Below are positions 40,593 through 53,973 of a stretch of DNA of 64,000 nt, piece after piece (positions within the stretch are counted from its first letter, which is position 1; each line of letters begins with the position of its first letter). The stretch is from NCBI GenBank assembly GCA_018175075.1, contig GCA_018175075.1_4100.1. One strand, 5' to 3'. The translations under genes were made by a program, and so were the position numbers. Below the pieces are notes generated by a model, which saw nothing but the letters and a program-made list of their open reading frames with translations, did not search any database and was not told the origin of the DNA. The DNA is from a phage.

Positions 40593-41003
40593 TTAAACAC
40601 ATAGAGACAGGGGAAGCTCCTAGTGAACAACCTTTATGTACAGGCGAATTGTTAAAATTCAGCCTGGACAAATGCGATCACTAGGATTCTCCCCAGGCTA
40701 AACCCCGTAATCATAGGTAGTCATAAGTAATCATATATAAACATTTATATGAGCACCGTAGAATCACAGAATGATTATATATGATTCAGTACTGATTAGT
40801 ATAGACAAGATTGCTCAAGAATGCACGGAAATGTGTGTGAATGATTCAGTACTGATATCCCACTAAGTAGGCAGAGGAAGTCTGCCGTACTTTGTAGTTT
40901 CCAAGCTCCTTTTCCATTTTGCAAATTACATCAAATGTAATCAAAAGTAATCACACAATGATTAGTACTGAATTATTACTTTCACCTTAATTACAATTAC
41001 CCT

Positions 41004-41023
41004 TTTACCCTTCGGGGTAAAAT
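41004..41023 (+). other. perfect 8-bp hairpin with UUCG tetraloop in noncoding island
   Basis: TTTTACCC-TTCG-GGGTAAAA. Confidence 0.4.
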
Positions 41024-41230
41024 TCCATTACCCCTTGAGGCTCCAGCAAAAAGTTGGTTAGTACTCCATCCTAAATCTCGATCCTAAAAATTTTGGAGTA
41101 CCTATGAAATAAAAGTTGGATCTTCGAAAGTTGAAATTTACGTTGGGACGTTTATGATTTGTGGGATATAATGATGTTTGTAGTCGGGTAGTTCTCAAGA
41201 ATATCAGTACTGAATGATGAAAGAAAGCTA

Positions 41231-41385
41231 TTGACTTTATGATTCAGTACTGTATAATGTTTTACATAGAGAGATGAGTTGCCGCAAACAATTCATTCAC
41301 TCTACTTCCTGTCGTGAGACAGTACAGAAAGATAGTTCCTCCTATGGGTGGTACATCTTTTAGAACCTCTTTTTTCGTAATATGA
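41231..41385 (+). ncRNA. candidate small transcript: promoter TTGACT/16/TATAAT, no ORF of 60 aa or more, T-run at 41371-41376
   Basis: TTGACT 41231-41236, TATAAT 41253-41258; only a 29-codon ORF downstream. Confidence 0.25.
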
Positions 41386-41441
41386 ACAGTACTGATATTA
41401 ACAGAATGGTGTCAGTACTGATTTTAATTTAATGCATTATG

Positions 41442-41461
41442 CCACCAGCACAAGCTGGTGG
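41442..41461. repeat. inverted Chi-octamer hairpin
   Basis: CCACCAGC-ACAA-GCTGGTGG. Confidence 0.5.
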
Positions 41462-41587
41462 ATTCCCTCTAACAGTATTCAGTACTACATGATGGTCTTC
41501 ATCCTCCTAGGGTAACATAGTGAGGGCTATGATGGCAGTACTGAATACTCCCTTTCAAAAGATAGATCTATGGTATAGTACTGACGG

Positions 41588-41775
41588 ATTTTGGGCGTAG
41601 TTACCCTGGATGGATTTTGGGCGTAGATATGTCTAGCCCTCCAGAAGTCTGGAAGTAAAGATGGCTATCCATCTAGACGGCTAAACGGCTAGATTTCTGG
41701 ATGGCTGGATGGCTAGACGTTTGGACGGCTAAACGGCTAGATGGTTACACGTCTGGAAGTATAGACGGCTAAATC
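41588..41775. repeat. iteron-like direct repeats
   Basis: ATTTTGGGCGTAG x2; GACGGCTAAACGGCTAGAT x2 (41676-41694, 41724-41742); GTCTGGAAGTA x2; reiterated GGCTA/GATGG units. Confidence 0.5.
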
Positions 41776-41994
41776 AAAATTTTATTTTGTTTTTTCCAAT
41801 AGTTCCCCTACCGCGTGGGGATAGTTTCCCCGCAGTATCTGGTGTTAGATTTTTCTGAATCTGGAATCATTATCTTATAAACTGGGGGCAATGTCAACGG
41901 CCTGGACGGATATTTTTAAAAATTTTTTCAGTACTGAATTTTGGGCGTAACTATGCACCCGGTGGGCTGGAGTCTTTCTCGACTTGATGGAACT

Positions 41995-42022
41995 ATTATA
42001 CAGTACTGGAAAAATAAAGCAA
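41995..42022 (-). promoter_or_regulatory. minus-strand promoter TTGCTT/16/TATAAT
   Basis: read as reverse complement. Confidence 0.35.
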
Positions 42023-42209
42023 TACCCTGGATGAAAAAAGTTTTAATTAATTTGCTTGCCATCCTGGGCCGGACTATGGTACTATAATTCAGTACTGAGA
42101 AAGTGCGTTAACCTGCTAGGGTGCGGGAGTGTATCCTTTTTTTATATCTTGAATTTTGGGCGTAATTCCGCACCCTCTGGGGTTTCCGCTTTCTCGCGTC
42201 TATGTAGTA

Positions 42210-42237
42210 ATTATACGCTTTTTCAGGATCAAGTCAA
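42210..42237 (-). promoter_or_regulatory. minus-strand promoter TTGACT/16/TATAAT
   Basis: read as reverse complement. Confidence 0.35.
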
Positions 42238-42390
42238 TACCTAAAAACAAATAATTGAAAATAATTTAACGCGTTTAAACGGCCCGTAACGCCCTGGAAT
42301 GATTAGAATGGTGCAAATGTATAGCTTAGGTGTATTAATGCGTTAGAATGCGTCTGAGGCCGTTTTATGGGGTGTAGTAGTGATTTGGTT

Positions 42391-42480
42391 GATTCAGTAC
42401 TGAATAATAGTACTCCTATATAGAAAGATAGTTCCCCTGGATTGATTCAGTACTGAATAATAGTACTCCTATATAGAAAG
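42391..42480. repeat. tandem direct repeat, 37-bp unit at 53-bp period
   Basis: GATTCAGTACTGAATAATAGTACTCCTATATAGAAAG at 42391-42427 and 42444-42480. Confidence 0.6.
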
Positions 42481-42512
42481 AAAACTATTTTAAAAGTACA
42501 TGTAGAAAGTAC

Positions 42513-42571
42513 TTGCACCGTACTGATAAAAGCGTATAATGTTTTACATCGAGAGCGGGAACACTTCCCGC
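42513..42571 (+). promoter_or_regulatory. A-type promoter/stem-loop cassette
   Basis: TTGCAC/16/TATAAT + GCGGGAA-CAC-TTCCCGC. Confidence 0.55.
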
Positions 42572-42586
42572 TACACTTTAAAAGAG

Positions 42587-42958
42587 ATGAAAACGATGGC
42601 GACTCAAATCAATAAAATCATGCTTAACCTGGTAAACTTCCGCGATGAGATGAAAGGTCTTCCGGCTGAAACTGTAAAAATTCACATTGCAGCTTATCGG
42701 GAACTTATTGCAATGTTGCCGCTTAAGCGTGAACAATACGCCGCTACTTTGATGCTGGATTCAATGATCCATGTAATGATCTCAAATGATTTAACGATGG
42801 TTTATCAGTACATGGGAGAAAATTTCGCGGTGTGTAGTAAGCCAGTACCAGGGATGGCAACTACTGAGGAATTGCACGGTTTAAATTTAAAGCAAGATGC
42901 ATGGGATAATATGCCTCGTTTCCTGGTATGGGCTGACAGTGGCAAAATTTACAAATAA
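42587..42958 (+). CDS. hypothetical protein
   Basis: ATG 42587 after the stem-loop; track start 42539 is the ATG inside the -10 box. Confidence 0.55.
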   Translation: MKTMATQINKIMLNLVNFRDEMKGLPAETVKIHIAAYRELIAMLPLKREQYAATLMLDSMIHVMISNDLTMVYQYMGENFAVCSKPVPGMATTEELHGLNLKQDAWDNMPRFLVWADSGKIYK

Positions 42959-42972
42959 GTTTAATAAAGTAC

Positions 42973-43031
42973 TTGCAAACTATGTTTAATGGCGTATAAT
43001 GTTTTACATCAGGTGGGGAATAGTTCCCCAC
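42973..43031 (+). promoter_or_regulatory. A-type promoter/stem-loop cassette
   Basis: TTGCAA/16/TATAAT + GGGGAA-TAG-TTCCCC. Confidence 0.55.
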
Positions 43032-43051
43032 TATATAAGAGGATTAAAAAA

Positions 43052-43291
43052 ATGGCTAAATCAAAAATGTTCTTAGGTCACAAAAACAAAACTCATTGGA
43101 ATGTAAGCCTGTGGATTAATAACGATGAGGGATTGTATCGGTTGGCCCTGGATTTTATTAACGACAACACTAATCGCAATGATGCGGCCCGTCATATGAT
43201 GTTATTTTTAGAACAGACTGGACAAGATAAAACACCGGACGGATTCAAATATAGCACTACTGCGATCCGTGCGGCGATGGTTGGAATGTAA
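43052..43291 (+). CDS. hypothetical protein (paralog of 45092 gene)
   Basis: AAGAGGA RBS; shared ..GHKNKTHWNVSLWINN..TPDGFKYSTTAIRAAMVGM. Confidence 0.6.
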   Translation: MAKSKMFLGHKNKTHWNVSLWINNDEGLYRLALDFINDNTNRNDAARHMMLFLEQTGQDKTPDGFKYSTTAIRAAMVGM

Positions 43292-43381
43292 TAGAATAGA
43301 ATTTATTTAAAGTACTATCGCAAAAAATGATAGTACTTTATAATAGTGTTTTATTCATACACCAACGATAAGGGCAACAGC

Positions 43382-43645
43382 ATGAATATTAAGTATTTTG
43401 CGACGCGTGAACAAGCTCGGATCGCTGCACGCCAGGACGGGGCAACGTTTAAAGATATGGGCGTACAATCGGAACGTGGTAAACGTTGGGCCATTGTAAA
43501 GCGTAGTACCGCCAGATCATTACAGTACTGGTTAGCGGCCTTAAAAAGTCCCGATAGTGTATCGCGTCGAGTGGTAGAAATAAAGCTCGACCGAAAGGGC
43601 AACCGCGTGACCGTGTACCGTACTAAAAAGATTGCAGTACTATAA
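43382..43645 (+). CDS. hypothetical protein (paralog of 56658 gene)
   Basis: AAGGG RBS; shared KYFATREQARIAAR..DRKGNRVTVY. Confidence 0.55.
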   Translation: MNIKYFATREQARIAARQDGATFKDMGVQSERGKRWAIVKRSTARSLQYWLAALKSPDSVSRRVVEIKLDRKGNRVTVYRTKKIAVL

Positions 43646-43653
43646 AAAAGTAC

Positions 43654-43711
43654 TTGCAAACTCTGTTTAATGGCGTATAATGTTTTACATCGAGAGCGGG
43701 AACACTTCCCG
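43654..43711 (+). promoter_or_regulatory. A-type promoter/stem-loop cassette
   Basis: TTGCAA/16/TATAAT + GCGGGAACACTTCCCGC. Confidence 0.55.
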
Positions 43712-43733
43712 CCTATAACCTGGAGTAATAAAA

Positions 43734-43964
43734 ATGACTAATATGTATATGACTGAAGTTAAAACCGTAAAAGATACTACCACAAATAAAGTTACTTACT
43801 TACAGCGGATCTGTGGTGTATGGCAACGTATCAGCAAATCAAAGTACTATAAATTAACATCATATGCAAACCGTTCTGATTCATTCAGTACTGAAATAAA
43901 AGGTAATAAAGTACACCAATACGGCACTTATTATTATTACAGCCTGGACGCGATTGCAGTATAA
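43734..43964 (+). CDS. hypothetical protein
   Basis: 76 aa, GGAG RBS. Confidence 0.55.
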   Translation: MTNMYMTEVKTVKDTTTNKVTYLQRICGVWQRISKSKYYKLTSYANRSDSFSTEIKGNKVHQYGTYYYYSLDAIAV

Positions 43965-43994
43965 GCAGTTTACAAATCTTTACAATTGCCGGTA

Positions 43995-44023
43995 TTGACT
44001 TATTTTGTCAGTACTGGCATAAT
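43995..44023 (+). promoter_or_regulatory. sigma70-like promoter TTGACT/17/CATAAT with no ORF downstream
   Basis: faces minus promoter 44139-44167 across an inverted-repeat element. Confidence 0.4.
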
Positions 44024-44039
44024 GTATTCATTGGCAGAT

Positions 44040-44135
44040 AAGCCGTAGCCCATAGGGTGCGGGAGTGTATCTATAGAAAAATTAGTTTAGTATAGTTACA
44101 ATTGTGCACCCGGTGGGTTAGCTGTTGTCATGGGG
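44040..44135. repeat. GGGTGC inverted-repeat element
   Basis: CCCATAGGGTGC .. GCACCCGGTGGG arms about 50 nt apart; related copies at ~41950, 42110-42180, 46520, 51365, 53020, 55365, 58625, 60890. Confidence 0.5.
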
Positions 44136-44138
44136 TAT

Positions 44139-44167
44139 ATTATGCCAGTACTGGATAGTGCTGTCAA
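44139..44167 (-). promoter_or_regulatory. minus-strand promoter TTGACA/17/CATAAT
   Basis: read as reverse complement; convergent with 43995 promoter. Confidence 0.4.
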
Positions 44168-44211
44168 TACTTTTTTAATATTCAGTACTGAAAACTATTT
44201 TTAAAAAGTAC

Positions 44212-44357
44212 TTGCAAACTATGTTTAAAGGCGTATAATGTTTTACATCAGGACGGGGAACGAAATAAGTAACTTCCCGTTAAGTAGCCCAGGAGTAAGG
44301 CACACGAAAAACTCCCCTGATAAAATAGTTTGACAATTGTTTTTAAAAGCGTATAAT
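44212..44357 (+). promoter_or_regulatory. tandem promoters flanking a conserved leader (copy 1)
   Basis: TTGCAA 44212/TATAAT 44234; leader hairpin; second TTGACA 44330/TATAAT 44352; homologous block at 55428-55571. Confidence 0.5.
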
Positions 44358-44389
44358 ACTTACATCAACTACTGAATGAGGGTTACAAA

Positions 44390-45001
44390 ATGAAAACTAT
44401 CACTACTACTACTTTCGTTATGGATTTTTCTGAATTGAACGCAGAACAAAAAACGTCAGCTATCGAACTGGTTCGGGAACGTGAAAAAAACTCAAACGAC
44501 AATTATTTTTCTGAAAGTGAAATTGAATACTATAAAGAAACAGTACTACCGGAATATGGCATTAATGACGCTGAAATACAATTCAGTGGCTTTTGGTCCC
44601 AGGGTGACGGTGCATCAATCAGTACTGACCACGTTGACGCAGTGAAGTTTTTACGCAAGGTAAGAGCATTAACTAAGTATCGCTCAATCCGTCACCTGCT
44701 GAATGAAGATGATTTGGCGATGAGTGTAAAGCGTTCGCACTCCCACTACTCGCATGAGAATACTGTAAGCGGGTACATTGAATCGGCTTACACTGATTTA
44801 ACCGCAAAACAAGAAACGTTAGTTAATGAGCTTGAGGAACTACTCACTGAAACTATTCGTGAATTGTCCCGCAAGTTGTACCGTGATTTAGAGAATGCAT
44901 ATGAGGATCAATTCACCACTGAAAACATTACGGCACTGATTGAGGGTAACGAATATCAATTCAATGTTATTGATGGCGTAGTAGAATCAATCGAATATTA
45001 A
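44390..45001 (+). CDS. hypothetical acidic protein
   Basis: 203 aa, GAGGG RBS. Confidence 0.65.
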   Translation: MKTITTTTFVMDFSELNAEQKTSAIELVREREKNSNDNYFSESEIEYYKETVLPEYGINDAEIQFSGFWSQGDGASISTDHVDAVKFLRKVRALTKYRSIRHLLNEDDLAMSVKRSHSHYSHENTVSGYIESAYTDLTAKQETLVNELEELLTETIRELSRKLYRDLENAYEDQFTTENITALIEGNEYQFNVIDGVVESIEY

Positions 45002-45013
45002 TTTAAAAAGTAC

Positions 45014-45073
45014 TTGCAAACTAAGTTTAAAAGCGTATAATACTTTATATCGAGGCGGGGAATGGTTCCCCGC
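45014..45073 (+). promoter_or_regulatory. A-type promoter/stem-loop cassette
   Basis: TTGCAA/16/TATAAT + GCGGGGAA-TGG-TTCCCCGC. Confidence 0.55.
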
Positions 45074-45091
45074 TCAAACGAGGATTTAAAA

Positions 45092-45331
45092 ATGGCTAGT
45101 ACTAAAACTTACAACGGTCACAAAAACAAAACTCATTGGAATGTAAGCCTTTGGATTAATAACGGTGAGTCATTGTATCGGCTTGCTCAAAGTTGCATCG
45201 CACAAAGTAGAACTAAAGATATTGCTGCGGAATGTATGTACCGCAGATTAAAAGCCAACGGTACTACTACAACGCCGGACGGCTTTAAGTATAGCACTAC
45301 TGCGATCCGTGCTGCAATGGTTGGAATGTAA
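45092..45331 (+). CDS. hypothetical protein (paralog of 43052 gene)
   Basis: 79 aa, GAGGA RBS. Confidence 0.6.
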   Translation: MASTKTYNGHKNKTHWNVSLWINNGESLYRLAQSCIAQSRTKDIAAECMYRRLKANGTTTTPDGFKYSTTAIRAAMVGM

Positions 45332-45350
45332 TATTCAGTACTGAGATAAT

Positions 45351-45370
45351 GGCGGGGAATGGTTCCCGCC
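45351..45370 (+). promoter_or_regulatory. isolated cassette-type stem-loop
   Basis: GGCGGGGAA-TGG-TTCCCGCC with no clear -35. Confidence 0.35.
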
Positions 45371-45388
45371 TTTACTGAGGGTTATCTA

Positions 45389-45676
45389 ATGAGTAAAGTA
45401 ATAAAGTACAATGTGTTAAGTAAATCATTGTCTATCAGTGAATGCACCGATGGTTTTTGGATGTACGATGAAACGCGTGGCATGAATTTAGCTATGCGTG
45501 CAAAAACTGCTGAGGCGGCGTATATTCAAGCACTGGAATACTACCAGGAACGTTTAAAGGAAGTAGAAGAAGATTATAAAAGCCTCAAAGCGAAAGTAGA
45601 TCATTTCGTCGGTCAATTCGTGGAAGACAACGACGAGGACGGGCACTACTGCGACCGTTGCGGATCTTACAGTTAA
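45389..45676 (+). CDS. hypothetical protein
   Basis: ATG 45389 with GAGGG RBS; C-terminal CDRC. Confidence 0.5.
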   Translation: MSKVIKYNVLSKSLSISECTDGFWMYDETRGMNLAMRAKTAEAAYIQALEYYQERLKEVEEDYKSLKAKVDHFVGQFVEDNDEDGHYCDRCGSYS

Positions 45677-45693
45677 GTACTAAGGATTATATA

Positions 45694-45906
45694 ATGAGTG
45701 ATTTAATTGAACGTATCAAAGAGCTTGAAGAAAAAGAATTGCAGTTGATCGGGTTACGGAATAAAGTATTCCATGATTTAGGTGGCTTTATTAATGCCTG
45801 GGATAGTGGCGATCCTGATGCGTTACCTGCTAACCGCCAGGCGATGATCAATGATGTGCGTGGTGTCTTTGAGTATGTTTTAAAAGTACTAGACACTAAG
45901 CAATAA
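45694..45906 (+). CDS. hypothetical protein
   Basis: ATG 45694 with AAGGA RBS. Confidence 0.5.
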   Translation: MSDLIERIKELEEKELQLIGLRNKVFHDLGGFINAWDSGDPDALPANRQAMINDVRGVFEYVLKVLDTKQ

Positions 45907-45967
45907 AGGCGTATAATACTTTATATTGGTACTGACAAACATTATAAGCGATTCAGGAGCTTTAATC

Positions 45968-46153
45968 ATGACAACATTATCTGAGGTTATCCGCGTTCAA
46001 GCTGCAAAGGCTGGAATGACTGTTATCAATGTAGGGATCAAGATTGAGATCTCCCCTAACGAGTTGCAAGGGATTCCCGATCCTACTAGCTGGGATCGTG
46101 CTGGGCGAATGATGCGTAATGCTTCATTACTGGACGGTACAAAATTTAATTAA
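45968..46153 (+). CDS. hypothetical protein
   Basis: 61 aa; CAGGAG RBS. Confidence 0.45.
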   Translation: MTTLSEVIRVQAAKAGMTVINVGIKIEISPNELQGIPDPTSWDRAGRMMRNASLLDGTKFN

Positions 46154-46160
46154 AAAGTAC

Positions 46161-46219
46161 TTGCAATTAGTTTTTAGTACTGTATAATGGTTTACATCAA
46201 AGGGAGAAATGGTTCTCCC
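46161..46219 (+). promoter_or_regulatory. A-type promoter/stem-loop cassette
   Basis: TTGCAA/16/TATAAT + GGGAGAAATGGTTCTCCC. Confidence 0.55.
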
Positions 46220-46238
46220 TGGTAATGAGGAAAATAAA

Positions 46239-46460
46239 ATGGCTAATATCACTACTCTTTCCCAACTGGAAGCACTGGTTAAATCTATGCGGGAACATGC
46301 CGACAAAATCGGCGTACAAGATCCAGCCGTTTGCTTCTGCGACGAAATGAATGATGATACACTGGTAATAGCAGAAGTCCAGGACGTTTCTAACTATTCC
46401 TCGCGTTACACTGGCGGCGTAGCAAATAAAGGTGACTTCTGTTTATACCTTACAAAATAA
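46239..46460 (+). CDS. hypothetical protein
   Basis: 73 aa, GAGGA RBS. Confidence 0.55.
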   Translation: MANITTLSQLEALVKSMREHADKIGVQDPAVCFCDEMNDDTLVIAEVQDVSNYSSRYTGGVANKGDFCLYLTK

Positions 46461-46465
46461 CAACG

Positions 46466-46496
46466 CGGGGAGATAATAACTCCCCGTTACTTTTTC
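46466..46496. terminator. intrinsic terminator hairpin, T-rich on both sides
   Basis: CGGGGAGATAATAACTCCCCG then TTACTTTTTC. Confidence 0.55.
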
Positions 46497-46566
46497 AGTA
46501 CTGAATCATTTAATAGACGGATCTCGGCACCCGGTGGGTTAGTGACTGTTTCGTCTTGATGTAGTA

Positions 46567-46595
46567 ATTATGCCAGTACTGGATGCACTTGTCAA
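46567..46595 (-). promoter_or_regulatory. minus-strand promoter TTGACA/17/CATAAT
   Basis: read as reverse complement; would give a ~90-nt antisense RNA ending at hairpin 46466-46486. Confidence 0.35.
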
Positions 46596-46628
46596 CAACT
46601 ATTTTTCAAATACTTTTTATTAAAATAC

Positions 46629-46682
46629 TTGCAATTAGTTTTTAAACGCGTATAATGTTTTGCATAGGGGGAGCGGTTCCCC
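46629..46682 (+). promoter_or_regulatory. A-type promoter/stem-loop cassette
   Basis: TTGCAA/16/TATAAT + GGGGGAGCGGTTCCCC. Confidence 0.5.
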
Positions 46683-46703
46683 TGGTAACTAAGGAATAAT
46701 AAA

Positions 46704-46940
46704 ATGCTTGAACAAATCAAATCAACGTCTGCGAATGTAACGGGAACGGTAGCACACTTTACTAGTGATGAATCGCGGGGCGTTCCCTATTGTGCTGTAC
46801 ATGTAAACACTGAGGGTAACTACTGGTTTACGGTTTACGGATCATATTCATTTGGACGGCCTGGACATCAAAAAATTCTGGATAAAGTACAGCCAACGGG
46901 TAAAAATATCACTGCTGAAATGTTTTATAAAAAATCATAA
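46704..46940 (+). CDS. hypothetical protein
   Basis: 78 aa, AAGGA RBS. Confidence 0.55.
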   Translation: MLEQIKSTSANVTGTVAHFTSDESRGVPYCAVHVNTEGNYWFTVYGSYSFGRPGHQKILDKVQPTGKNITAEMFYKKS

Positions 46941-46945
46941 AGTAC

Positions 46946-47005
46946 TTGATAATAGTTTTTAGTACTGTATAATATTTTACATCGCAAGGGGGGAGCGGTT
47001 CCCCC
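46946..47005 (+). promoter_or_regulatory. A-type promoter/stem-loop cassette
   Basis: TTGATA/16/TATAAT + GGGGGGAGCGGTTCCCCC. Confidence 0.5.
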
Positions 47006-47025
47006 TGGTAACTAAGGATAATCAA

Positions 47026-47325
47026 ATGAAAATTGCAATCATCGCCCTGGCTTTATCTGTTTCCTCTTTCGCTGTTAATGCGTCGTTAGATGTAAGTAGT
47101 GAAAAATTCATTCAGTGCACTGTAGCGATGACCAATGAAAGTACTGGCGAGATTGTTTTAAAGGATTTAGAGATCCAGCCAGAAGCATTTAAAAACGGGC
47201 CGTTCCATGAAGAAGACGAAAAAGGTAGCACGACAATTTATTACGATGCAAGTACTAAACGCGGTTCGGTCACTGTTATGGATACTGAGAAAGTAACGCA
47301 TTCCGGCGTTATTAATTGCCGTTGA
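47026..47325 (+). CDS. secreted protein (signal peptide)
   Basis: MKIAIIALALSVSSFAVNASLD; AAGGA RBS. Confidence 0.6.
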   Translation: MKIAIIALALSVSSFAVNASLDVSSEKFIQCTVAMTNESTGEIVLKDLEIQPEAFKNGPFHEEDEKGSTTIYYDASTKRGSVTVMDTEKVTHSGVINCR

Positions 47326-47346
47326 TAGATACTACGGGGTAACATC

Positions 47347-47577
47347 ATGACTAAGCGAATTGTTTTACTTAACGAAAGCAGTACTACACAACTACTTAAC
47401 GCCGTGCATTATGATATTGAAACGAGCGTTAATCTTATCAGTACTGTAGTACTGTTGGACACTGGAAAGGTCGCCAATGATAAAGCGATTGCAGGTATAT
47501 TAACGGATCTTGAGCCTGGTAGCAGTGCACCAATAACGTTAAATGGTAAAGTGTTTAATATTTTACTCACTGATTAA
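47347..47577 (+). CDS. hypothetical protein
   Basis: 76 aa, GGGG RBS. Confidence 0.5.
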   Translation: MTKRIVLLNESSTTQLLNAVHYDIETSVNLISTVVLLDTGKVANDKAIAGILTDLEPGSSAPITLNGKVFNILLTD

Positions 47578-47583
47578 GTACAT

Positions 47584-47607
47584 AGCCCACCTGGTGGGCT
47601 TTTTTGT
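47584..47607 (+). terminator. intrinsic terminator
   Basis: AGCCCACC-T-GGTGGGCT + T6. Confidence 0.7.
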
Positions 47608-47659
47608 TTTTGTAGTATCGTAGTACTGAGATACTTTGAAAATAGTTTTAAAAAAATAG

Positions 47660-47687
47660 TTGACATTACCGCAAAAAGGCGTAGAAT
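47660..47687 (+). promoter_or_regulatory. sigma70-like promoter TTGACA/16/TAGAAT with ~120-nt leader
   Basis: hexamers read directly. Confidence 0.45.
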
Positions 47688-47810
47688 ATATTACATCAAG
47701 ACGGGGAGCACTAAGTAGACCGCCAGTAAGTCGAACGAAAAACTGGACACGTCGAGAAAACTTTGATACACTAATAAACGTAAACTAAACTTTAATTGAG
47801 GATTTATAAA

Positions 47811-48293
47811 ATGGCTAATGTAAAATCATTCATCAAAGCACTGGTAGCAAATGAAACTAACGTCGCGGCTGAGATCCTGGCTGAACTGGATAACGATACC
47901 ATGAAAGCGGTACGCAATAATTTTAACATCGCTTACAGTACTGCGAAAGAACTACAAGCAAATAAAGCGGCAGAAATTGAAGCGGCAAAGGCGGCCCGTG
48001 AAGCAGAACTACAAGCAACAATTGAAAGTATTCAGGCGGCAGTAGTTGGATTGGATCTGGAAGTAGTTACAGAGATGGCACAAAAAGCCCTGGCGAAAAA
48101 GTACGGTGAAGATAAGCCAGAAGTAAAAGCTAAAAAATGGATTCAAGAACGTGTAGCGGTAGTACTTGATAACGGGGAAGAATATCTGATTCCGGTGCGT
48201 GGTAACTGCATTGCGGTAGTACTGGATGCGATTAACTCCAGTGGTATGACTCGCGAGGAATGGATCGAAGCTCATCGCAAAGTTGAAGCATAA
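47811..48293 (+). CDS. hypothetical Ala/Glu-rich helical protein
   Basis: ATG 47811 with GAGGA RBS; 160 aa. Confidence 0.6.
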   Translation: MANVKSFIKALVANETNVAAEILAELDNDTMKAVRNNFNIAYSTAKELQANKAAEIEAAKAAREAELQATIESIQAAVVGLDLEVVTEMAQKALAKKYGEDKPEVKAKKWIQERVAVVLDNGEEYLIPVRGNCIAVVLDAINSSGMTREEWIEAHRKVEA

Positions 48294-48314
48294 CAATTAA
48301 AGTACTGAATCATT

Positions 48315-48341
48315 AGCCCACTTATACAGTGGGCTTTTTTG
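48315..48341 (+). terminator. intrinsic terminator
   Basis: AGCCCAC-TTATACA-GTGGGCT + T6. Confidence 0.7.
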
Positions 48342-48494
48342 TGTTTATCGTTTACCAGGCCACCAGCACCGCCTAGAAACGATTCTAACGTATTAAACTG
48401 TTTATCTGATGCATTGCCCTAGCTGGTGGCGTTAAAGTCGTTAGAATGCGATTGAGTGCGTTTAAAGTATTTTGCAAAAAGTAATAAAAAGTAC

Positions 48495-48555
48495 TTGCAC
48501 GATTAAGAGATTAGCGTATAATGTTTTACATCGAGAGGGGGAAACGGTTCTCCTT
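48495..48555 (+). promoter_or_regulatory. A-type promoter/stem-loop cassette
   Basis: TTGCAC/16/TATAAT + degenerate GGGGGAAAC..stem. Confidence 0.5.
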
Positions 48556-48577
48556 CCAAATCAAAGGAATCAAAACA

Positions 48578-48805
48578 ATGGCTATTATCATTACTCGCGT
48601 ATCTGGTACTACTGGCAACGAACAAGTAGTTGCAGTCATTACCAACAAGGAAGGTGCGGAATTGCAAAATGCAATGAATACCTGGGCCGTTAATGAGTTC
48701 GGTCAGTGGGCAAGTGTAGCATACATTGAAACCTATCAAGTGCCGTCGATTAGTTTAACTGATTTGGGCGTTGAGCGTATCCTTTGCCTTGATGAATTAA
48801 ATTAA
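48578..48805 (+). CDS. hypothetical protein
   Basis: ATG 48578 after cassette; 75 aa. Confidence 0.55.
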   Translation: MAIIITRVSGTTGNEQVVAVITNKEGAELQNAMNTWAVNEFGQWASVAYIETYQVPSISLTDLGVERILCLDELN

Positions 48806-48813
48806 AAAAGTAC

Positions 48814-48874
48814 TTGCAAAGTAAATCGAATAAAGTATAATACATTACATCAAGGGGAGAAAATGGTTCTCCCC
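48814..48874 (+). promoter_or_regulatory. A-type promoter/stem-loop cassette
   Basis: TTGCAA/16/TATAAT + GGGGAGA..TCTCCCC. Confidence 0.55.
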
Positions 48875-48891
48875 ACTACAAGGAAACTAAA

Positions 48892-49035
48892 ATGAAAACT
48901 TGTCAATGTGGTCAGAAATCTATTACTGGTTTAAAGCGGGGCGTTGCTCTTTGCCAGTACCATTATAATTTACAAGTATGGGGTAAAGAATGGGCCGACC
49001 AGGTGGAAGCAGCAAAGAAAGCAAAAAGTAAGTAA
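48892..49035 (+). CDS. small Cys-containing protein
   Basis: 47-aa ORF below track cutoff; AAGGAAA RBS; CQCG..CQYH. Confidence 0.4.
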   Translation: MKTCQCGQKSITGLKRGVALCQYHYNLQVWGKEWADQVEAAKKAKSK

Positions 49036-49054
49036 AAATATTATCACAGTACTA

Positions 49055-49083
49055 TTGACATAGTTTGATAGTACTGGCATAAT
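49055..49083 (+). promoter_or_regulatory. B-type promoter cassette
   Basis: TTGACA/17/CATAAT inside a ~60-bp block near-identical at 49347, 52182, 60212. Confidence 0.55.
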
Positions 49084-49114
49084 AGATTTTATCAAAACAA
49101 CTGAGGAAAATAAA

Positions 49115-49327
49115 ATGGCTATCATCACTAAAATCAAAGTTAACAAGACTATCGTTAAACTGGCAGAAGTGAAAGAAGGTTATAAAGTATCTTGGTGCGG
49201 TATGTATCGGACGTTCGCAGATATAGATGATGCAATCAATTACTACACTGACACGGTTAAAAACTTTGTTCGTGCTGATGTGGTTATGGCAGTGGCAACA
49301 TATAAAGCAGCGAAAGAAAGTAAGTAA
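49115..49327 (+). CDS. hypothetical protein (paralog of 52246 gene)
   Basis: 70 aa, GAGGA RBS. Confidence 0.55.
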   Translation: MAIITKIKVNKTIVKLAEVKEGYKVSWCGMYRTFADIDDAINYYTDTVKNFVRADVVMAVATYKAAKESK

Positions 49328-49346
49328 AAATATTATCACAGTACTA

Positions 49347-49375
49347 TTGACATAGTTTGATAGTACTGGCATAAT
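49347..49375 (+). promoter_or_regulatory. B-type promoter cassette
   Basis: TTGACA/17/CATAAT. Confidence 0.55.
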
Positions 49376-49416
49376 AGATTTTATCAAGACAACATATTAA
49401 TTTAAGGAATACAAAA

Positions 49417-49740
49417 ATGGCTAAAACTATCATTAACACCGTTTCCCTGGCTGCAATCCGTGCAATCAATGTTGACGGTAAACGTTGGACTGATTCATAT
49501 GGCAATACTTATCATTCTTGTCATGTAAGCGTTGAACTGGATAACGGTTTGAATGATCTGGCGGTTGAATCATTTACTTATGGCTATGAAGATGCATATC
49601 AACAAACGGCGTTATCTCTCTTAAAGGAATCAGTAGACGGGCTTAATACTGATGAAACCTCCCTTACTCGTTTGTGTAATGATTTGTCTATCCCGTTGCA
49701 TTGTACTGTACAGAATGTTAAACGCAAAAAAGATCTTTAA
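49417..49740 (+). CDS. hypothetical protein (paralog of 56239 gene)
   Basis: AAGGAA RBS; shared ..RWTDSxGNTYHSCxVS..VKRKKD. Confidence 0.6.
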   Translation: MAKTIINTVSLAAIRAINVDGKRWTDSYGNTYHSCHVSVELDNGLNDLAVESFTYGYEDAYQQTALSLLKESVDGLNTDETSLTRLCNDLSIPLHCTVQNVKRKKDL

Positions 49741-49820
49741 TTAGCTTTACTTTATGCAGATACTTTGATATAGTGTCTGCATAGGGGAAAGAAATTAAAT
49801 TAACTTAAGAGGATCGTATA

Positions 49821-50090
49821 ATGAAAAATATCAGTACTTTAATCGACGCAGGTACACATGTTCGGCGGTCTATGGTTGCAACCAGTACTACAAAACAAGT
49901 AGCGAGCGGTTATCTTGTATTTGTGCACGATGGTAAACTCCTGGAACGTTCAATCAATTTTGATGTTAAAAACAATTGCCGTTTTATTATCTTTAAGCGT
50001 GAACAATATAAAATCGATTTGCCAGCAAAGCCCATTAGCGGGGCGTACAACGTGCAATCATTGTTTGAGCGTCAACCTTACACCTATTAA
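49821..50090 (+). CDS. hypothetical protein
   Basis: 89 aa, AAGAGGA RBS. Confidence 0.55.
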   Translation: MKNISTLIDAGTHVRRSMVATSTTKQVASGYLVFVHDGKLLERSINFDVKNNCRFIIFKREQYKIDLPAKPISGAYNVQSLFERQPYTY

Positions 50091-50141
50091 TCAAAACATC
50101 GTTAGCGGTCGTTTTAGGCCGCTTATATTGGGGATTATACC

Positions 50142-50414
50142 ATGAACGTTAATCAAGTACTGAATGAGATCGAAAGCATCATTAAACCGATGAAGCGTAC
50201 TGATGCTATGTTAACACCGGAAGAATGCCGCCTTTATGAGCGTTACAGCGTCGAACAAGTCCAGGCAATGGCTATGGCTACCCCAGCCGTTAAACCGCCT
50301 GAGAATGCGTTACAGGACGTTACAGGGGATTATATCATCAATCCAGTACTAGGGAAGATGGCTGCAATCACCGAAGATCAACAAGACTACTTAAGCCAGT
50401 ACTTAAAAGGTTAA
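50142..50414 (+). CDS. hypothetical protein
   Basis: 90 aa. Confidence 0.5.
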   Translation: MNVNQVLNEIESIIKPMKRTDAMLTPEECRLYERYSVEQVQAMAMATPAVKPPENALQDVTGDYIINPVLGKMAAITEDQQDYLSQYLKG

Positions 50415-50419
50415 TTAAT

Positions 50420-50629
50420 ATGCTTACTGTACAGGATAAGATCGACATCTTAAAGGTTAATATGTATGTGATTGATGCAGTACCTGGTAAAGTATTTGCA
50501 TACGATGACACCACTGTAAGCGATTTCTACTATAGCCAGGCCGTGGGGGATCTTTCTGTACAGTCGGTTATTGAAAACGTAGTTAATGCAGCGTATGAGC
50601 ATTTACTTTCAAATAGTACTTGCAATTAG
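50420..50629 (+). CDS. hypothetical protein
   Basis: 69 aa; last codons lie inside the next cassette -35 region. Confidence 0.5.
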   Translation: MLTVQDKIDILKVNMYVIDAVPGKVFAYDDTTVSDFYYSQAVGDLSVQSVIENVVNAAYEHLLSNSTCN

Positions 50630-50679
50630 TTTTTAAACGCGTATAATGTTTTACATGAAGGGGAGAAATGATTCTCCCC
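50620..50679 (+). promoter_or_regulatory. A-type promoter/stem-loop cassette
   Basis: TTGCAA/16/TATAAT + GGGGAGAAATGATTCTCCCC. Confidence 0.55.
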
Positions 50680-50698
50680 ACTAATTAAGGAATATGAA

Positions 50699-50845
50699 AT
50701 GAAAGCATCAAAAAAGAGTACTAACAAGAAAGCACGTTCAACCTTAGATGGGGTATTCCCTTTACGTTTCGTTGATGAAGTGGTTTCCTACCCGCCTGGC
50801 CTTACTCCTGAGATGGTAGAAAGTTTGCGTAAATCTAAAAAATAG
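50699..50845 (+). CDS. small basic protein
   Basis: 48-aa ORF below track cutoff; AAGGAA RBS. Confidence 0.4.
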   Translation: MKASKKSTNKKARSTLDGVFPLRFVDEVVSYPPGLTPEMVESLRKSKK

Positions 50846-50848
50846 TAC

Positions 50849-50908
50849 TTGCAATTAGTTTTTAGTACTGTATAATGTTTTACATGAAGGGGAGAAATGA
50901 TTCTCCCC
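50849..50908 (+). promoter_or_regulatory. A-type promoter/stem-loop cassette
   Basis: TTGCAA/16/TATAAT + GGGGAGAAATGATTCTCCCC. Confidence 0.55.
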
Positions 50909-50926
50909 AATAACAGGAGAAACAAA

Positions 50927-51079
50927 ATGAAACAATACAACGCTCGGTTTGATGTTACTATCGGTAACGGCAAAGGTCAATTCTCTTTCAGTACTCGCCG
51001 CAGTTATACAGAAAACTTCCTGCGTAATTGTGCACTGACCGCCGCACAAATTAAACATTACTTTCAGGCTAAAAAATGA
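50927..51079 (+). CDS. small hypothetical protein
   Basis: 50 aa from ATG 50927 with CAGGAG RBS. Confidence 0.45.
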   Translation: MKQYNARFDVTIGNGKGQFSFSTRRSYTENFLRNCALTAAQIKHYFQAKK

Positions 51080-51165
51080 AATCATTAGCTTATTACAGTT
51101 CGGCCCTGGTCGGTGCATTGATCGCGGCATTGTTAGTAACCTATCTATTCTTTATGGTGATTTAA
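51076..51165 (+). CDS. possible 29-aa membrane peptide
   Basis: ATGA overlap with upstream stop; one TM segment. Confidence 0.25.
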   Translation: MKSLAYYSSALVGALIAALLVTYLFFMVI

Positions 51166-51300
51166 ATGAATCCTAACGGTATAATTTACAGTACTCCTAA
51201 AACGAAAGCAGACAAGGTAAACGCTAAAAAAGCGAAAGTAAAGGAGTACATCAAGCAAGGCATGACGCGAAAGGCCGCAGTACTTAAAGCTAAAAAATAA
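51166..51300 (+). CDS. possible 44-aa Lys-rich peptide
   Basis: starts right after previous stop; ends before the terminator. Confidence 0.25.
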   Translation: MNPNGIIYSTPKTKADKVNAKKAKVKEYIKQGMTRKAAVLKAKK

Positions 51301-51310
51301 ATGAAAAAAG

Positions 51311-51336
51311 TGGTTGACTTCGGTCAGCCATTTTGC
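51311..51336 (+). terminator. intrinsic terminator (UUCG loop)
   Basis: GGTTGAC-TTCG-GTCAGCC + TTTT. Confidence 0.65.
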
Positions 51337-51435
51337 TATTATATATTCATTGAGAGATAGCTCACTAGCCCACAGGGTGCGGAAGTGTATCTATTATATA
51401 AGTATTGAGTACTGAAAACTATTTTTAAAAAGTAC

Positions 51436-51495
51436 TTGCAAACTATCTCAATAGGCGTATAATGTTTTACATCGAAAGGGGAAACGGTTTCCCCT
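51436..51495 (+). promoter_or_regulatory. A-type promoter/stem-loop cassette
   Basis: TTGCAA/16/TATAAT + AGGGGAAAC-G-GTTTCCCCT. Confidence 0.55.
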
Positions 51496-51514
51496 GGTAA
51501 TAAGGAAACAAATC

Positions 51515-51856
51515 ATGACTATTGCAATTGCTCAATCTAACTTTGAAAATGAAATCATCGCTCAGACACTGCGTTTAAGTGATGGTCGGGCCGAAATTAA
51601 TTACGGTTTCAATTCAGGCGGTTGTGAAAAATATCAGTACTTTGTAACGGCTGATGGCGGTGTCCTGGGTATCAATACAGTTATTGTAAACATACAGAAA
51701 ATTAATTTCAATGATCCAGACGATAGCCAGTTTTACATCACAGGCGTAGACGTGAACTATGAGGATGACTCACTAACTGATGATCACACTGGCGAGCGGT
51801 TAGAAAGTGCATACGGTGAAGATGATTATCAGTCCGGTCCAGAAGATTTCGAATAA
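51515..51856 (+). CDS. hypothetical acidic protein
   Basis: 113 aa, AAGGAAA RBS. Confidence 0.6.
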   Translation: MTIAIAQSNFENEIIAQTLRLSDGRAEINYGFNSGGCEKYQYFVTADGGVLGINTVIVNIQKINFNDPDDSQFYITGVDVNYEDDSLTDDHTGERLESAYGEDDYQSGPEDFE

Positions 51857-51869
51857 TATAAAAAATAGT

Positions 51870-51929
51870 TTGACAATAGATTATAGTACTGTATAATAGT
51901 TTACATCAAGGGGAGAAATGATTCTCCCC
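51870..51929 (+). promoter_or_regulatory. C-type promoter/stem-loop cassette
   Basis: TTGACA/16/TATAAT + GGGGAGAAATGATTCTCCCC. Confidence 0.55.
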
Positions 51930-51949
51930 ACTAACAGAGAGAAAACAAA

Positions 51950-52162
51950 ATGGCTAATATCTGCACTGTACTGAAAAATGCAAAACAAGTTTTATTTTCT
52001 GATCACGATCATTTAAACAAGGATATTACTGGCGTTCGGAATATCAAAGATGTAAAAAGTGTTATGGGTATCTATTGCAATATGAAACGTGTTGGAACGT
52101 TCGGCGACAAAGTACTATACCAGGCAGGGGATTACAATTTTACACTGACTATCATTAACTAA
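51950..52162 (+). CDS. hypothetical protein
   Basis: 70 aa. Confidence 0.55.
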   Translation: MANICTVLKNAKQVLFSDHDHLNKDITGVRNIKDVKSVMGIYCNMKRVGTFGDKVLYQAGDYNFTLTIIN

Positions 52163-52181
52163 AAATATTATCACAGTACTA

Positions 52182-52210
52182 TTGACATAGTTTGATAGTA
52201 CTGACATAAT
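52182..52210 (+). promoter_or_regulatory. B-type promoter cassette
   Basis: TTGACA/17/CATAAT. Confidence 0.55.
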
Positions 52211-52245
52211 AACTTTTATCAACTACACTACTAAGGAATTAAAAA

Positions 52246-52425
52246 ATGGCTATCATCGCAAAAACTGAAATCGTTGGTCTGGATTCTATCATCATGACGT
52301 TTGAAGATCAAAAAGGTATGTATGTAGTTTCATATGGTGATTATGTTCGGGAGTATGAAACGGTAGACGAAGCCTTTGAAAGTTATATTCGCCAGGTGAA
52401 TAAAGCATACGACGACTACCGCTAA
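52246..52425 (+). CDS. small protein (paralog of 49115 gene)
   Basis: 59-aa ORF below track cutoff; AAGGAA RBS. Confidence 0.45.
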   Translation: MAIIAKTEIVGLDSIIMTFEDQKGMYVVSYGDYVREYETVDEAFESYIRQVNKAYDDYR

Positions 52426-52443
52426 AATATATTACCAGTACTA

Positions 52444-52471
52444 TTGACAACGTTTGATAGTACTGTATAAT
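52444..52471 (+). promoter_or_regulatory. B-type promoter cassette variant
   Basis: TTGACA/16/TATAAT. Confidence 0.5.
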
Positions 52472-52515
52472 AAGTTTTATAAACAGTAGTTAACTTAACC
52501 TAAGAGAGAAATAAA

Positions 52516-52659
52516 ATGATCGCACTGGATTCATTCATCGACGCAGTACTGGCAAAAACTGGCGAGGATCTGACCGCAGAACAATACGCAATGATCGAGC
52601 AATGCCAGCAAGACGGTAAATCGGTGAAAGATACTGTTAAGATTATCCGCAAGATGTAA
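52516..52659 (+). CDS. small hypothetical protein
   Basis: 47-aa ORF below track cutoff; AAGAGAG RBS. Confidence 0.4.
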   Translation: MIALDSFIDAVLAKTGEDLTAEQYAMIEQCQQDGKSVKDTVKIIRKM

Positions 52660-52666
52660 TATTATA

Positions 52667-52695
52667 GCCCACTGGTTAACGCTGGTGGGCTTTAA
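52667..52695 (+). terminator. terminator-like hairpin containing Chi octamer
   Basis: AGCCCACTGG..CTGGTGGGCT then TTTAATT. Confidence 0.5.
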
Positions 52696-52764
52696 TTCAT
52701 TACCCTATACAATGCCAGTACTAAACCGTTTATCTCGTTAGAATGCATTACAGGACGTTTGACA

Positions 52765-52962
52765 ATGATTAGCATGAAATCAGTACAAAAACAAATAGAA
52801 ACATTATCAAAAATTAAACGTAAACAGTACTCGTTAGAATATACAATCAATGGTAACTATCATCTAATGAAAGAAAATAATTTTATAGTCATTGATGAAT
52901 CATTGCAAATCATTAGTATAGTACTGAAAGCATTAATTAATGATAGAAAAAAATTAAAATAA
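52765..52962 (+). CDS. hypothetical AT-rich small protein
   Basis: ATG 52765 (track used TTG 52759); weak RBS. Confidence 0.35.
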   Translation: MISMKSVQKQIETLSKIKRKQYSLEYTINGNYHLMKENNFIVIDESLQIISIVLKALINDRKKLK

Positions 52963-52966
52963 TCTA

Positions 52967-52995
52967 TTGACAATATCCTCCAGTACTGGCATAAT
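52967..52995 (+). promoter_or_regulatory. sigma70-like promoter TTGACA/17/CATAAT
   Basis: hexamers read directly. Confidence 0.45.
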
Positions 52996-53057
52996 ACTTA
53001 CATCAAGACGAGAACGTCACTAACCCATAGGGTGCACAAATGTAACTATATAACATC

Positions 53058-53130
53058 GATCAATAAATGATCAAAAAAGTACTGGATCAATTTAGCATAA
53101 GGCGTATAATTCTGATCAATTCTTGATCAA
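53058..53130. promoter_or_regulatory. cluster of five co-oriented GATCAA sites around a -10 box
   Basis: GATC at 53058, 53069, 53085, 53114, 53125; TATAAT 53104-53109. Confidence 0.4.
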
Positions 53131-53291
53131 AGGCAATATACGCAGTTGAATTTATATAGACAGTACAAAGGCGTTACTATCCGTGGTAATGCTGGTGGAT
53201 ATGTAGTATCATGTGGTTTGAATAAGATTAGCACTAGTAGTATTATTGTAGCATTACAGTACTATAGTATTTTTATAATGAGGTTAAAATA

Positions 53292-53549
53292 ATGGCAGTA
53301 GGATACGCGAAAGACGGGGCCGAACAAGACGAGATTAACGCAGTGATTCAGGCCGCCGTTAACCACGCTAGAAAGCAAATTAACGCACAAAGAGAATCAC
53401 TAGTACATTGCCTCGACTGCGGCGATAAAATCCCTGAGAATCGACGCCAGGCCGTTATAGGGTGCATGTATTGTATTACTTGCCAGGCGGATCATGATAG
53501 TACTTTTAAAAGAGATCCGCGTAATTGTTGGCATAGATCTATGAGATAA
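53292..53549 (+). CDS. DksA/TraR-family C4 zinc-finger protein
   Basis: CLDCGDKIPENRRQAVIGCMYC matches the TraR-type CxxC-IPE-RR-CxxC finger. Confidence 0.7.
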   Translation: MAVGYAKDGAEQDEINAVIQAAVNHARKQINAQRESLVHCLDCGDKIPENRRQAVIGCMYCITCQADHDSTFKRDPRNCWHRSMR

Positions 53550-53556
53550 AAAGTAA

Positions 53557-53970: not shown

Positions 53971-53973
53971 TAC

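Follow-up and report, generated by a model that had tools for sequence, protein, structure and literature searches.

The element described here lies at positions 43995–44167 of a 64,000-nucleotide stretch of phage DNA (contig GCA_018175075.1_4100.1, assembly GCA_018175075.1), referred to in its full length as the window. Two sigma-70 promoters face each other at this site. The plus-strand promoter, TTGACT-17-CATAAT (43995–44023), scores 10/12, has a TG-extended -10 element and the palindrome CAGTACTG in its spacer, and is invariant in eight orthologues. The minus-strand promoter, TTGACA-17-CATAAT (44139–44167), scores 11/12 and is likewise TG-extended. The spacing between the two -10 hexamers is 115 bp, in agreement with a first-pass annotation of the window, which had placed both promoters here, ~115 bp apart and with no open reading frame (ORF) between them. 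Only ORFs of 20–24 amino acids (aa), none of them conserved, are found in this interval. A hidden small protein was rejected on the grounds of these short ORFs, inconsistent public annotations and frame-breaking indels in the orthologues. The long-range inverted repeat noticed between the promoters is also present, with 35-nt arms (44046–44080 and 44086–44120) that are 71% complementary and separated by 5 nt. The promoters themselves form a further inverted repeat outside it (44009–44026 and 44136–44153, 94%).

Downstream of the plus promoter, a 5′ hairpin (UGGC-AGAUAA-GCCG, 44032–44045, plus strand) precedes the invariant 12-mer core CCCATAGGGTGC (44049–44060, plus strand). The second hairpin of this copy (GGGUGC-GGGAGU-GUAUCU, 44055–44072, plus strand) depends on G-U pairs, so only the sense RNA can form its stem. 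An A+T-rich centre (44073–44093), assigned to neither strand, separates the two copies. The minus-strand copy comprises a short, A-rich leader without a hairpin (44118–44138), the invariant 12-mer core CCCACCGGGTGC (GCACCCGGTGGG on the plus strand; 44106–44117) and a second hairpin (GGGUGC-ACAAUU-GUAACU, 44094–44111). The inverted repeat thus arises because two copies of one directional module face each other. Folding of the pair gives z values of -5.4 and -4.7 on the two strands relative to shuffled sequences. As a candidate intrinsic bidirectional terminator, the pair does form a long hairpin, yet no U-tract follows it on either strand. A miniature inverted-repeat transposable element was also considered and rejected, as the arms belong to different leader classes and inspection by eye found no target duplication.

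An nhmmer profile of the conserved block recovers 10 full copies and one truncated copy in the window, with E values from 1e-11 to 2e-3. These include every related copy listed in the first-pass annotation, and the copies align well beyond the short core, so that its description of a dispersed family is upheld. Another 39 copies are found in 26–40-kb loci of phages RaK2, GAP32, CBB and Munch, giving with the window a five-genome set of 49 copies; 19 copies from four metagenomic jumbo-phage loci extend this to a set of 68. The module consists of a TTGACW -35 hexamer, a 17-nt spacer, an extended -10 element (TGnYATWAT), a short leader, the triplet U-R-R, the core CCCAYAGGGUGC and the second-hairpin region, in which six variable bases are followed by G/C-Y-R-U-C-Y-A-U. 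It spans ~80 bp, with conservation reaching ~45 nt past the predicted start of the RNA. Across the 68 copies, which represent at least five genera, 10 of the 12 core positions show little or no variation, whereas leaders and loops diverge. The core starts ~14–22 nt into the predicted transcript, and no indels occur between the core and the second hairpin in any of the 68 copies.

The coupling to promoters is tight. A promoter scoring at least 9/12 on the same strand, with its -10 element ending 21–29 nt before the core, is found for 47 of the 49 copies in the five genomes, compared with 2.8% of random positions. When the core occurrences are laid out with their flanks, each follows a promoter of the same orientation, and the inverted repeat flagged here is therefore made up of two head-to-head units. 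The triplet at positions -2 to 0 before the core (for example 44046–44048) is UAG, UAA or UGA in 37 of the 49 copies, and UGG, AGG and other non-stop triplets are rare; no conserved upstream reading frame accounts for this bias. A subset of modules across genera carries an additional conserved motif, AAATCTTTACAA, 9–15 nt 5′ of the -35 hexamer; it is observed in the window (43975–43986), RaK2, GAP32 and CBB.

Two lines of evidence concern the structure of the RNA. In 39 of the 49 leaders we observe a hairpin of 3–5 bp with a purine-rich loop, ending 3–5 nt before the core. It is absent from the class of short, A-rich leaders, to which the minus copy of the pair belongs. A free hairpin search of the leaders returned 23 distinct stems, with a mean score of 9.2 compared with 6.4 ± 0.44 for shuffles. 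Because the choice of the best hairpin for each sequence had to be avoided, a fixed geometry (a 4-bp stem with a 6-nt loop, placed 4 nt before the core), which about half of the copies fit, was tested on an ungapped alignment of 60 distinct leaders. This ungapped test was used instead of a covariance model because MAFFT cannot register leaders of variable length. The covariation score of the 5′ hairpin was 0.397, against 0.139 ± 0.025 for shuffles; none of 500 shuffles reached this value, and slid controls gave at most 0.20. All four pairs of the fixed geometry show two-sided changes, with four to six pair types.

The second hairpin pairs GGGUG with YRUCY. Of the corresponding cells, 91% are paired, compared with 35–66% when the partner is slid, and the 3′ arm varies only as Y-R-Y-C-Y, the set that retains pairing through G-U and U-G wobble. 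As the pairs are mostly G-U, neither the antisense strand nor DNA could form this hairpin. Taken together, the covariation of the 5′ hairpin and the strand-specific wobble are easier to reconcile with a constraint on the transcript than with one on a DNA unwinding element.

The 49 copies of the five genomes occur in three contexts: nine are antisense solos, 24 are sense solos and 16 are paired. These contexts differ sharply in the presence of terminators. Six of the nine antisense solos have a terminator 55–85 nt past the core (five detected by script, and that of the copy with its core at 46538 by a separate terminator scan), usually the bidirectional terminator of the converging gene. There is no ORF in these units and no gene ahead of them on their strand, and by the usual criteria they are predicted to be small-RNA genes of roughly 90–110 nt. 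In Munch and several metagenomic jumbo phages the whole antisense unit is conserved, including the linker UAGUACUGUACAAAUAAACA and the terminator. In contrast, only one of the 24 sense solos has a terminator, and these copies read on into the next gene; in the window, each of them is followed by another promoter 60–90 nt further downstream. None of the 16 paired copies has a terminator. Paired cores are offset by exactly 68 nt in the window and in GAP32 and CBB (all three pairs of each), and by 79–86 nt in Munch-like phages. What follows a module is another promoter, a terminator or an opposing copy, and never directly a ribosome-binding site with an ATG.

Eight Asteriusvirus orthologues were aligned over the flagged pair. 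Both promoters and both cores are invariant among them, and the second hairpins vary in their loops. In 121Q, A4 and TH47 an unrelated AUUG/CAAU hairpin takes the place of the plus leader hairpin UGGC/GCCG, and in WPEC3 and EJP2 the minus leader is 7 nt longer, with a GAC/GUC hairpin in place of the short leader. The two free core positions, 5 and 6, undergo uncompensated change in one partner; in A4, for example, the plus copy has CG and the minus copy TA. Partners disagree at these positions in the window and in A4 and 121Q, as they do in four of 10 pairs overall. Such uncompensated differences imply that selection keeps each unit and not the long hairpin formed by the two, and on these grounds the long-range hairpin was rejected as the feature under selection.

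Conservation extends well beyond this genus. A BLAST search with the pair recovered the plus unit in Klebsiella, Cronobacter, Pectobacterium and Salmonella phages, even though the flanks no longer align. In IMG/VR, a strict 19-base pattern matches only jumbo-phage contigs, including RaK2, 121Q, GAP32, CBB and several uncultured genomes. In a set of 185,579 bacterial genomes there are two matches, both devoid of the promoter and leader, which appear to be chance occurrences. With ~10 copies per terminal repeat and two repeats per virion DNA, the module is among the best-conserved non-coding features of the RaK2/121Q/GAP32/CBB/Munch group, retained in at least five genera although the surrounding DNA can no longer be aligned at the nucleotide level.

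No annotation of the module is present in any of the records inspected. The motif is not mentioned in the CBB, RaK2, phAPEC6 and fEgEco12 papers, and a literature text search with three core strings gave no match. At gathering thresholds, Rfam has no match in the whole window. With the cutoff relaxed to E ≤ 10 over 41800–47000, which contains five copies, eight sub-threshold matches at chance level were obtained (15.8–21.4 bits, compared with gathering thresholds of 38–77); only one of these, RT-6 (44131–44199), touches a module, at the minus promoter, and none lies on a core or hairpin. Judged by its sequence, the module looks like an undescribed family of early phage small RNAs or leaders.

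All 11 window copies lie within 41935–60923, and elsewhere in the 64 kb nothing scores better than E = 3. This range falls inside a direct terminal repeat of ~21 kb, which extends from 40866 to ~62300 and is internal in the source record of the window. Its left end corresponds to position 1 of phage vB_Ec-M-J, which aligns to 40866 and whose first 21,525 bp are annotated as a direct terminal repeat; its right end is placed from the experimentally confirmed repeat end of fEgEco12 at position 20,993, equivalent to ~62,300 in the window (PMC13070987). Over 43000–46000 the window is 97% identical to Escherichia phage SP27 and 87–95% identical to PBECO4, G17, 121Q and other Asteriusvirus members, which are jumbo myophages of 350–385 kb. 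The restriction to the repeat is also seen in CBB, where every copy lies within the annotated 22,456-bp repeat.

As the end of the genome, the terminal repeat presumably belongs to the DNA that enters the cell first. It contains small plus-strand ORFs behind many sigma-70-type promoters and terminators. Three of these ORFs (53292–53549, 53599–53970 and 57974–58558) comprise a DksA/TraR C4 zinc finger protein and a GNAT acetyltransferase, each at E = 5e-9, together with a weak similarity to protein kinases that falls short of the Pfam threshold (E = 2e-3); such content is typical of early host takeover. The CBB genome paper describes host-type promoters and early genes in and beside the repeat of that phage (PMC5259590). 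No transfer RNA or transfer-messenger RNA gene is found in the window.

In addition to the flagged pair, the left part of the repeat carries a minus-strand copy with a TTGCTT-16-TATAAT promoter (41943–42022; core 41966–41955, profile match 41935–41968), which is aimed at the physical left end of the genome. A further minus-strand copy (42158–42237; promoter 42237–42210, core 42181–42170, profile match 42150–42181) is faced at an offset of ~68 nt by the truncated plus-strand copy (42118–42145), in which AGGGTGCGGGAGTGTATCC is followed by a T-run; the two form a second, decayed pair. The solo antisense copy of the window (46455–46595, minus strand; core 46538–46527, profile match 46506–46542) has an 11/12 promoter at 46595–46567, which had been correctly recognised in the first-pass annotation, and a bidirectional terminator at 46486–46466, so that its predicted RNA would be ~105 nt long.

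The remaining copies are all on the plus strand, at 51314–51392 (core 51369–51380, profile match from 51365), 52967–53047 (core 53024–53035, profile match from 53020), 55309–55382 (core 55359–55370, profile match from 55357), 58577–58655 (core 58632–58643, profile match from 58628) and 60841–60914 (core 60891–60902, profile match from 60887). Except for the second, with its core at 53024, each of these has its promoter embedded in the upstream terminator, the -35 hexamer lying within the terminator hairpin (fusions at 51306–51342, 55301–55337, 58569–58605 and 60833–60869). The stem of a UUCG- or UCCG-loop terminator holds the -35 hexamer TTGACT, and the U-tract doubles as the spacer of the promoter that follows (AAAAAGGGATTGACTCCGGTCAGTCCCTTTGCTATTAT). 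RaK2, GAP32, CBB and Munch share this conserved fusion, and for the four window copies it bears out the earlier remark that related motifs often occur just after UUCG terminators. Neither copy of the flagged pair has such a promoter-overlapping terminator, nor do the copies at 53024 and 46538.

The explanation that we tentatively prefer, while rating it at somewhat less than an even chance, is that the module works as an RNA, namely an abundant, very early RNA that presents the 12-mer to a partner. Host polymerase would transcribe the module in large amounts right after infection. Antisense solos would yield a free RNA of ~90–110 nt, ended by the neighbouring bidirectional terminator; sense copies would form the 5′ end of early mRNAs, from which processing, or a block at the promoter 60–90 nt downstream, may release the RNA; and from pairs, two convergent transcripts that overlap would arise. 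Contact with a conserved partner, either a protein of host or phage or an RNA of the host, would be made through the invariant 12-mer that the two hairpins enclose, and the RNA would serve as a regulator or decoy present in many copies. The sequence analysis establishes an element that is coupled to promoters, strand-specific and constrained as RNA, and that is expected at the 5′ end of the first transcripts made by the host polymerase. An RNA function is favoured because the antisense solos are complete units with nothing but RNA to express, because the copy number is high, and because an invariant, single-stranded 12-mer between variable hairpins resembles a recognition surface.

There is a precedent for such RNAs in PA5oct, a distant relative of the RaK2 group, in which the terminal repeat is transcribed early and RNA sequencing revealed two highly expressed non-coding RNAs (PMC7318152). 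These are of 236 and 451 nt, are single-copy and reportedly show no database similarity outside the near-identical phage MIJ3 (PMC7318152). Whereas those RNAs were found by sequencing of transcripts, the module family is predicted from the genome alone, and no shared motif is known; the precedent makes the small-RNA reading plausible without bearing on homology. A resemblance to the small RNAs OmrA/OmrB (RF00079) was checked against the E. coli genes. Their seed, CCCAGAGGUAUUGAU, shares seven of its first eight nucleotides with the core and all eight with the copy at 42181, and it is likewise G/C-rich, in RNAs that end in a terminator. However, the seed lies at the extreme 5′ end of OmrA/OmrB, compared with ~14–22 nt into the transcript for the module core, and the sequences diverge after position 8. 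RF00079 gives no Rfam match at E ≤ 10, and we rejected the resemblance, as 7–8 nt is too short to count and could be due to chance.

Several observations weigh against an RNA acting in trans. Transcription and the RNA ends in this phage group are themselves predictions. The second hairpin shows no two-sided changes and its 5′ arm never varies, so that the evidence for it is weaker than for the 5′ hairpin; transition bias alone could yield its one-sided changes, since transitions are the commonest mutations. RNAalifold moreover favours a competing mini-hairpin, RCCC-AYA-GGGU, the outer R-U pair of which is kept in 66 of the 68 copies; this structure and the GGGUG/YRUCY hairpin may alternate. 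Beyond its terminator, the solo RNA is not unusually stable in silico (z -0.98). The sense solos, half of all copies, lack a terminator, and a free small RNA is therefore not guaranteed there. Complementarity to ribosomal RNA is at chance, the best matches in the rrnH operon (11–12 of 12 with wobble) being at shuffle level, and we discarded ribosomal RNA as a target or object of mimicry. The ~105-nt solo RNA has no similarity in 5,426 E. coli genomes at E ≤ 10, and copies or extended targets in the host were likewise rejected. Finally, the fixed distance from the transcription start would suit cis-acting control of the polymerase equally well.

This last point leads to the strongest alternative, which we regard as a rather unlikely but serious competitor: a cis-acting, promoter-proximal signal for RNA polymerase, read on the nascent RNA or the non-template strand at ~+35 to +50. 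By pausing or factor loading, in the manner of put/nut, RfaH ops or lambda Q, it would alter the travel of polymerase through the terminator-dense early region. The HK022 put RNA, lambda nut and RfaH ops are short promoter-proximal elements of this kind, in which hairpins flank or contain the recognised sequence, and ops is a 12-nt element, as is the module core. Besides the fixed start of the core and the absence of indels up to the second hairpin, this proposal would account for the 24 of 49 copies that are terminator-less sense leaders ahead of terminator-punctuated gene arrays. Ten nucleotides after the mini-hairpin RCCC-AYA-GGGU comes U-G-Y-R, with G at -10, a layout reminiscent of hairpin-stabilised pausing at the G-10/Y-1/G+1 consensus. 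The terminal repeat also encodes a polymerase-binding protein of the DksA/TraR type.

However, a structured RNA in the transcript of downstream genes, the trait of put and nut, fits the 24 sense solos and not the antisense copies: nine solos and the minus member of each pair face away from all genes. In the window, four of the six sense copies have their own promoter joined to a terminator at the start. Such an arrangement stops transcription and starts it anew, and it would serve no purpose if polymerases led by an upstream element were terminator-proof. No antiterminator protein was identified. The module has neither sequence similarity to put, nut or ops nor an Rfam match, and its likeness to these and to pause signals is tentative.

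It is improbable, in our estimate, that the copies are simply PeSL-type promoter/terminator cassettes, homogenised by recombination and gene conversion and mainly shuffling early genes, with a transcribed block of no specific function. The PeSL cassettes of T4-type phages combine strong early promoters, overlapping stem-loop terminators and recombination (PMC2839356, PMC4122927). They are the closest elements described so far, and the module resembles them as a repeated intergenic cassette among small early genes of unknown function, with sigma-70-like promoters that are A+T-rich upstream, in some copies a promoter-overlapping terminator, and signs of recombination, such as the swapped leaders at orthologous positions. 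A terminator with the -35 hexamer inside its hairpin, as in PeSLs (PMC2839356, PMC4122927), is found in the four sense copies at 51369, 55359, 58632 and 60891 and in many copies of other genera, and the region is full of repeated promoter/stem-loop cassettes, 24 of them of a standard type.

The module nevertheless differs from PeSLs in having a transcribed block with the invariant 12-mer and in its antisense and convergent copies, many of which lie on the non-coding strand. Because no ribosome-binding site (Shine-Dalgarno sequence) and start codon end the module, we set it beside PeSLs as a variant and not as a member. Gene conversion within a genome would also leave unexplained the persistence of the same 12-mer and wobble rule across genera whose flanks cannot be aligned. 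The standard early cassette is a separate element, present in 24 copies between 41224 and 61455 (for example 44205–44261); it lacks the 12-mer and is closer to PeSLs, with the layout AAAAAGTACTTGCAA-N16-TATAAT, GTTTTACATC, a G/C-rich 5′ stem-loop, a ribosome-binding site and an ATG.

Very improbable is a DNA operator, in which a protein would bind CCCAYAGGGTGC at ~+15 to +45 and shut off the strong early promoters at the early-to-middle switch. Invariance of the 12-mer is what a protein-binding site would show, as is its position immediately downstream of promoters, and a Fur-box-like site at the centre of some pairs in other genera suggests that proteins may bind inside the units. However, the 12-mer has no dyad symmetry and its orientation is tied to the direction of the promoter in 49 of 49 copies, the flanking hairpins show RNA-type covariation and G-U-only pairing, and no candidate binding protein was found. 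The Fur-box-like sites match the consensus GATAATGATAATCATTATC with 2–3 mismatches and are located at 7434, 2343 and 776 in the Munch locus (L005), at 6091 in locus L018, and at 12095, 11261 and 10743 in the RaK2 locus (L002). They lie midway between convergent modules and in the left, ORF-poor portion of the repeat. None occurs in this window, the centre of the flagged pair included.

Least probable is the first-pass interpretation of the pair as a dedicated sense/antisense switch or a transcription-primed replication origin: strong convergent promoters 115 bp apart, an A+T-rich centre and a constant pair offset (68 nt in Asteriusvirus and Mimasvirus, 79–86 nt in Munch-like phages) suit it, and the predicted transcripts would indeed be fully complementary, but two thirds of the copies (33 of 49) are unpaired, core changes are not compensated, with positions unmatched in four of 10 pairs and in orthologues, DnaA boxes are at chance level in the window and absent from the terminal repeat, neither iterons nor an initiator gene lie beside the pair, and at least 10 origins in 21 kb are implausible.

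Within the preferred reading of the module as an RNA acting in trans, a more specific proposal, which we hold to be doubtful although worth stating, is that the RNA captures a conserved enterobacterial factor, such as an RNA-binding regulator, a defence sensor or RNA polymerase. RaK2-like phages would then flood the cell with it within the first minutes from ~twenty gene copies, and the terminal repeat would encode in it an RNA-based means of host takeover or of countering defences. For these jumbo phages, with genomes of 350 kb, the early takeover programme is almost wholly unannotated, and a functional RNA would provide a handle on the first minutes of infection in phages that depend on the host polymerase. 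If the module were only a marker of recombination cassettes, it would account for the mosaic structure of the terminal repeat. The module is also a compact strong promoter-leader cassette for engineering.

Other repeated features were observed in the same DNA. The palindrome CAGTACTG occurs 66 times in the window, compared with 1.2 expected, and AGTACT 292 times. These sites are located in promoter spacers, just 5′ of -35 hexamers (AAAAAGTACTTGCAA), 8–15 nt past most modules and within coding regions on both gene strands; examples are 44009, 44146, 44183, 46496 and 46574. They may serve for binding or modification, or form a structural motif.

The E. coli Chi sequence GCTGGTGG has 15 sites in the window, compared with 0.66 expected, including sites at 15234 and 29285–29805. 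Eleven lie within the terminal repeat (41442–60956), nine of them in the plus orientation, and an opposed pair (41442, minus; 41454, plus) is found ~580 bp from the physical left end. This excess suggests that the linear genome ends are protected from RecBCD.

The leftmost ~1.6 kb of the terminal repeat (40866–42500) has no ORF of at least 70 aa and carries leftward promoters aimed at the genome end. This part also holds clusters of CAGTACTG and, at 41643–41770, a tandem array with 8-bp periodicity (GGATGGCT, AGACGGCT, AAACGGCT and further units). A 77-nt promoter cassette is duplicated with 99% identity at 49025–49101 and 49317–49393, 292 bp apart. Just outside the terminal repeat, at 62387–63873, seven tandem ORFs of ~70 aa share the motif ...LGTN(Y/F)Q... 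and appear to be paralogues.

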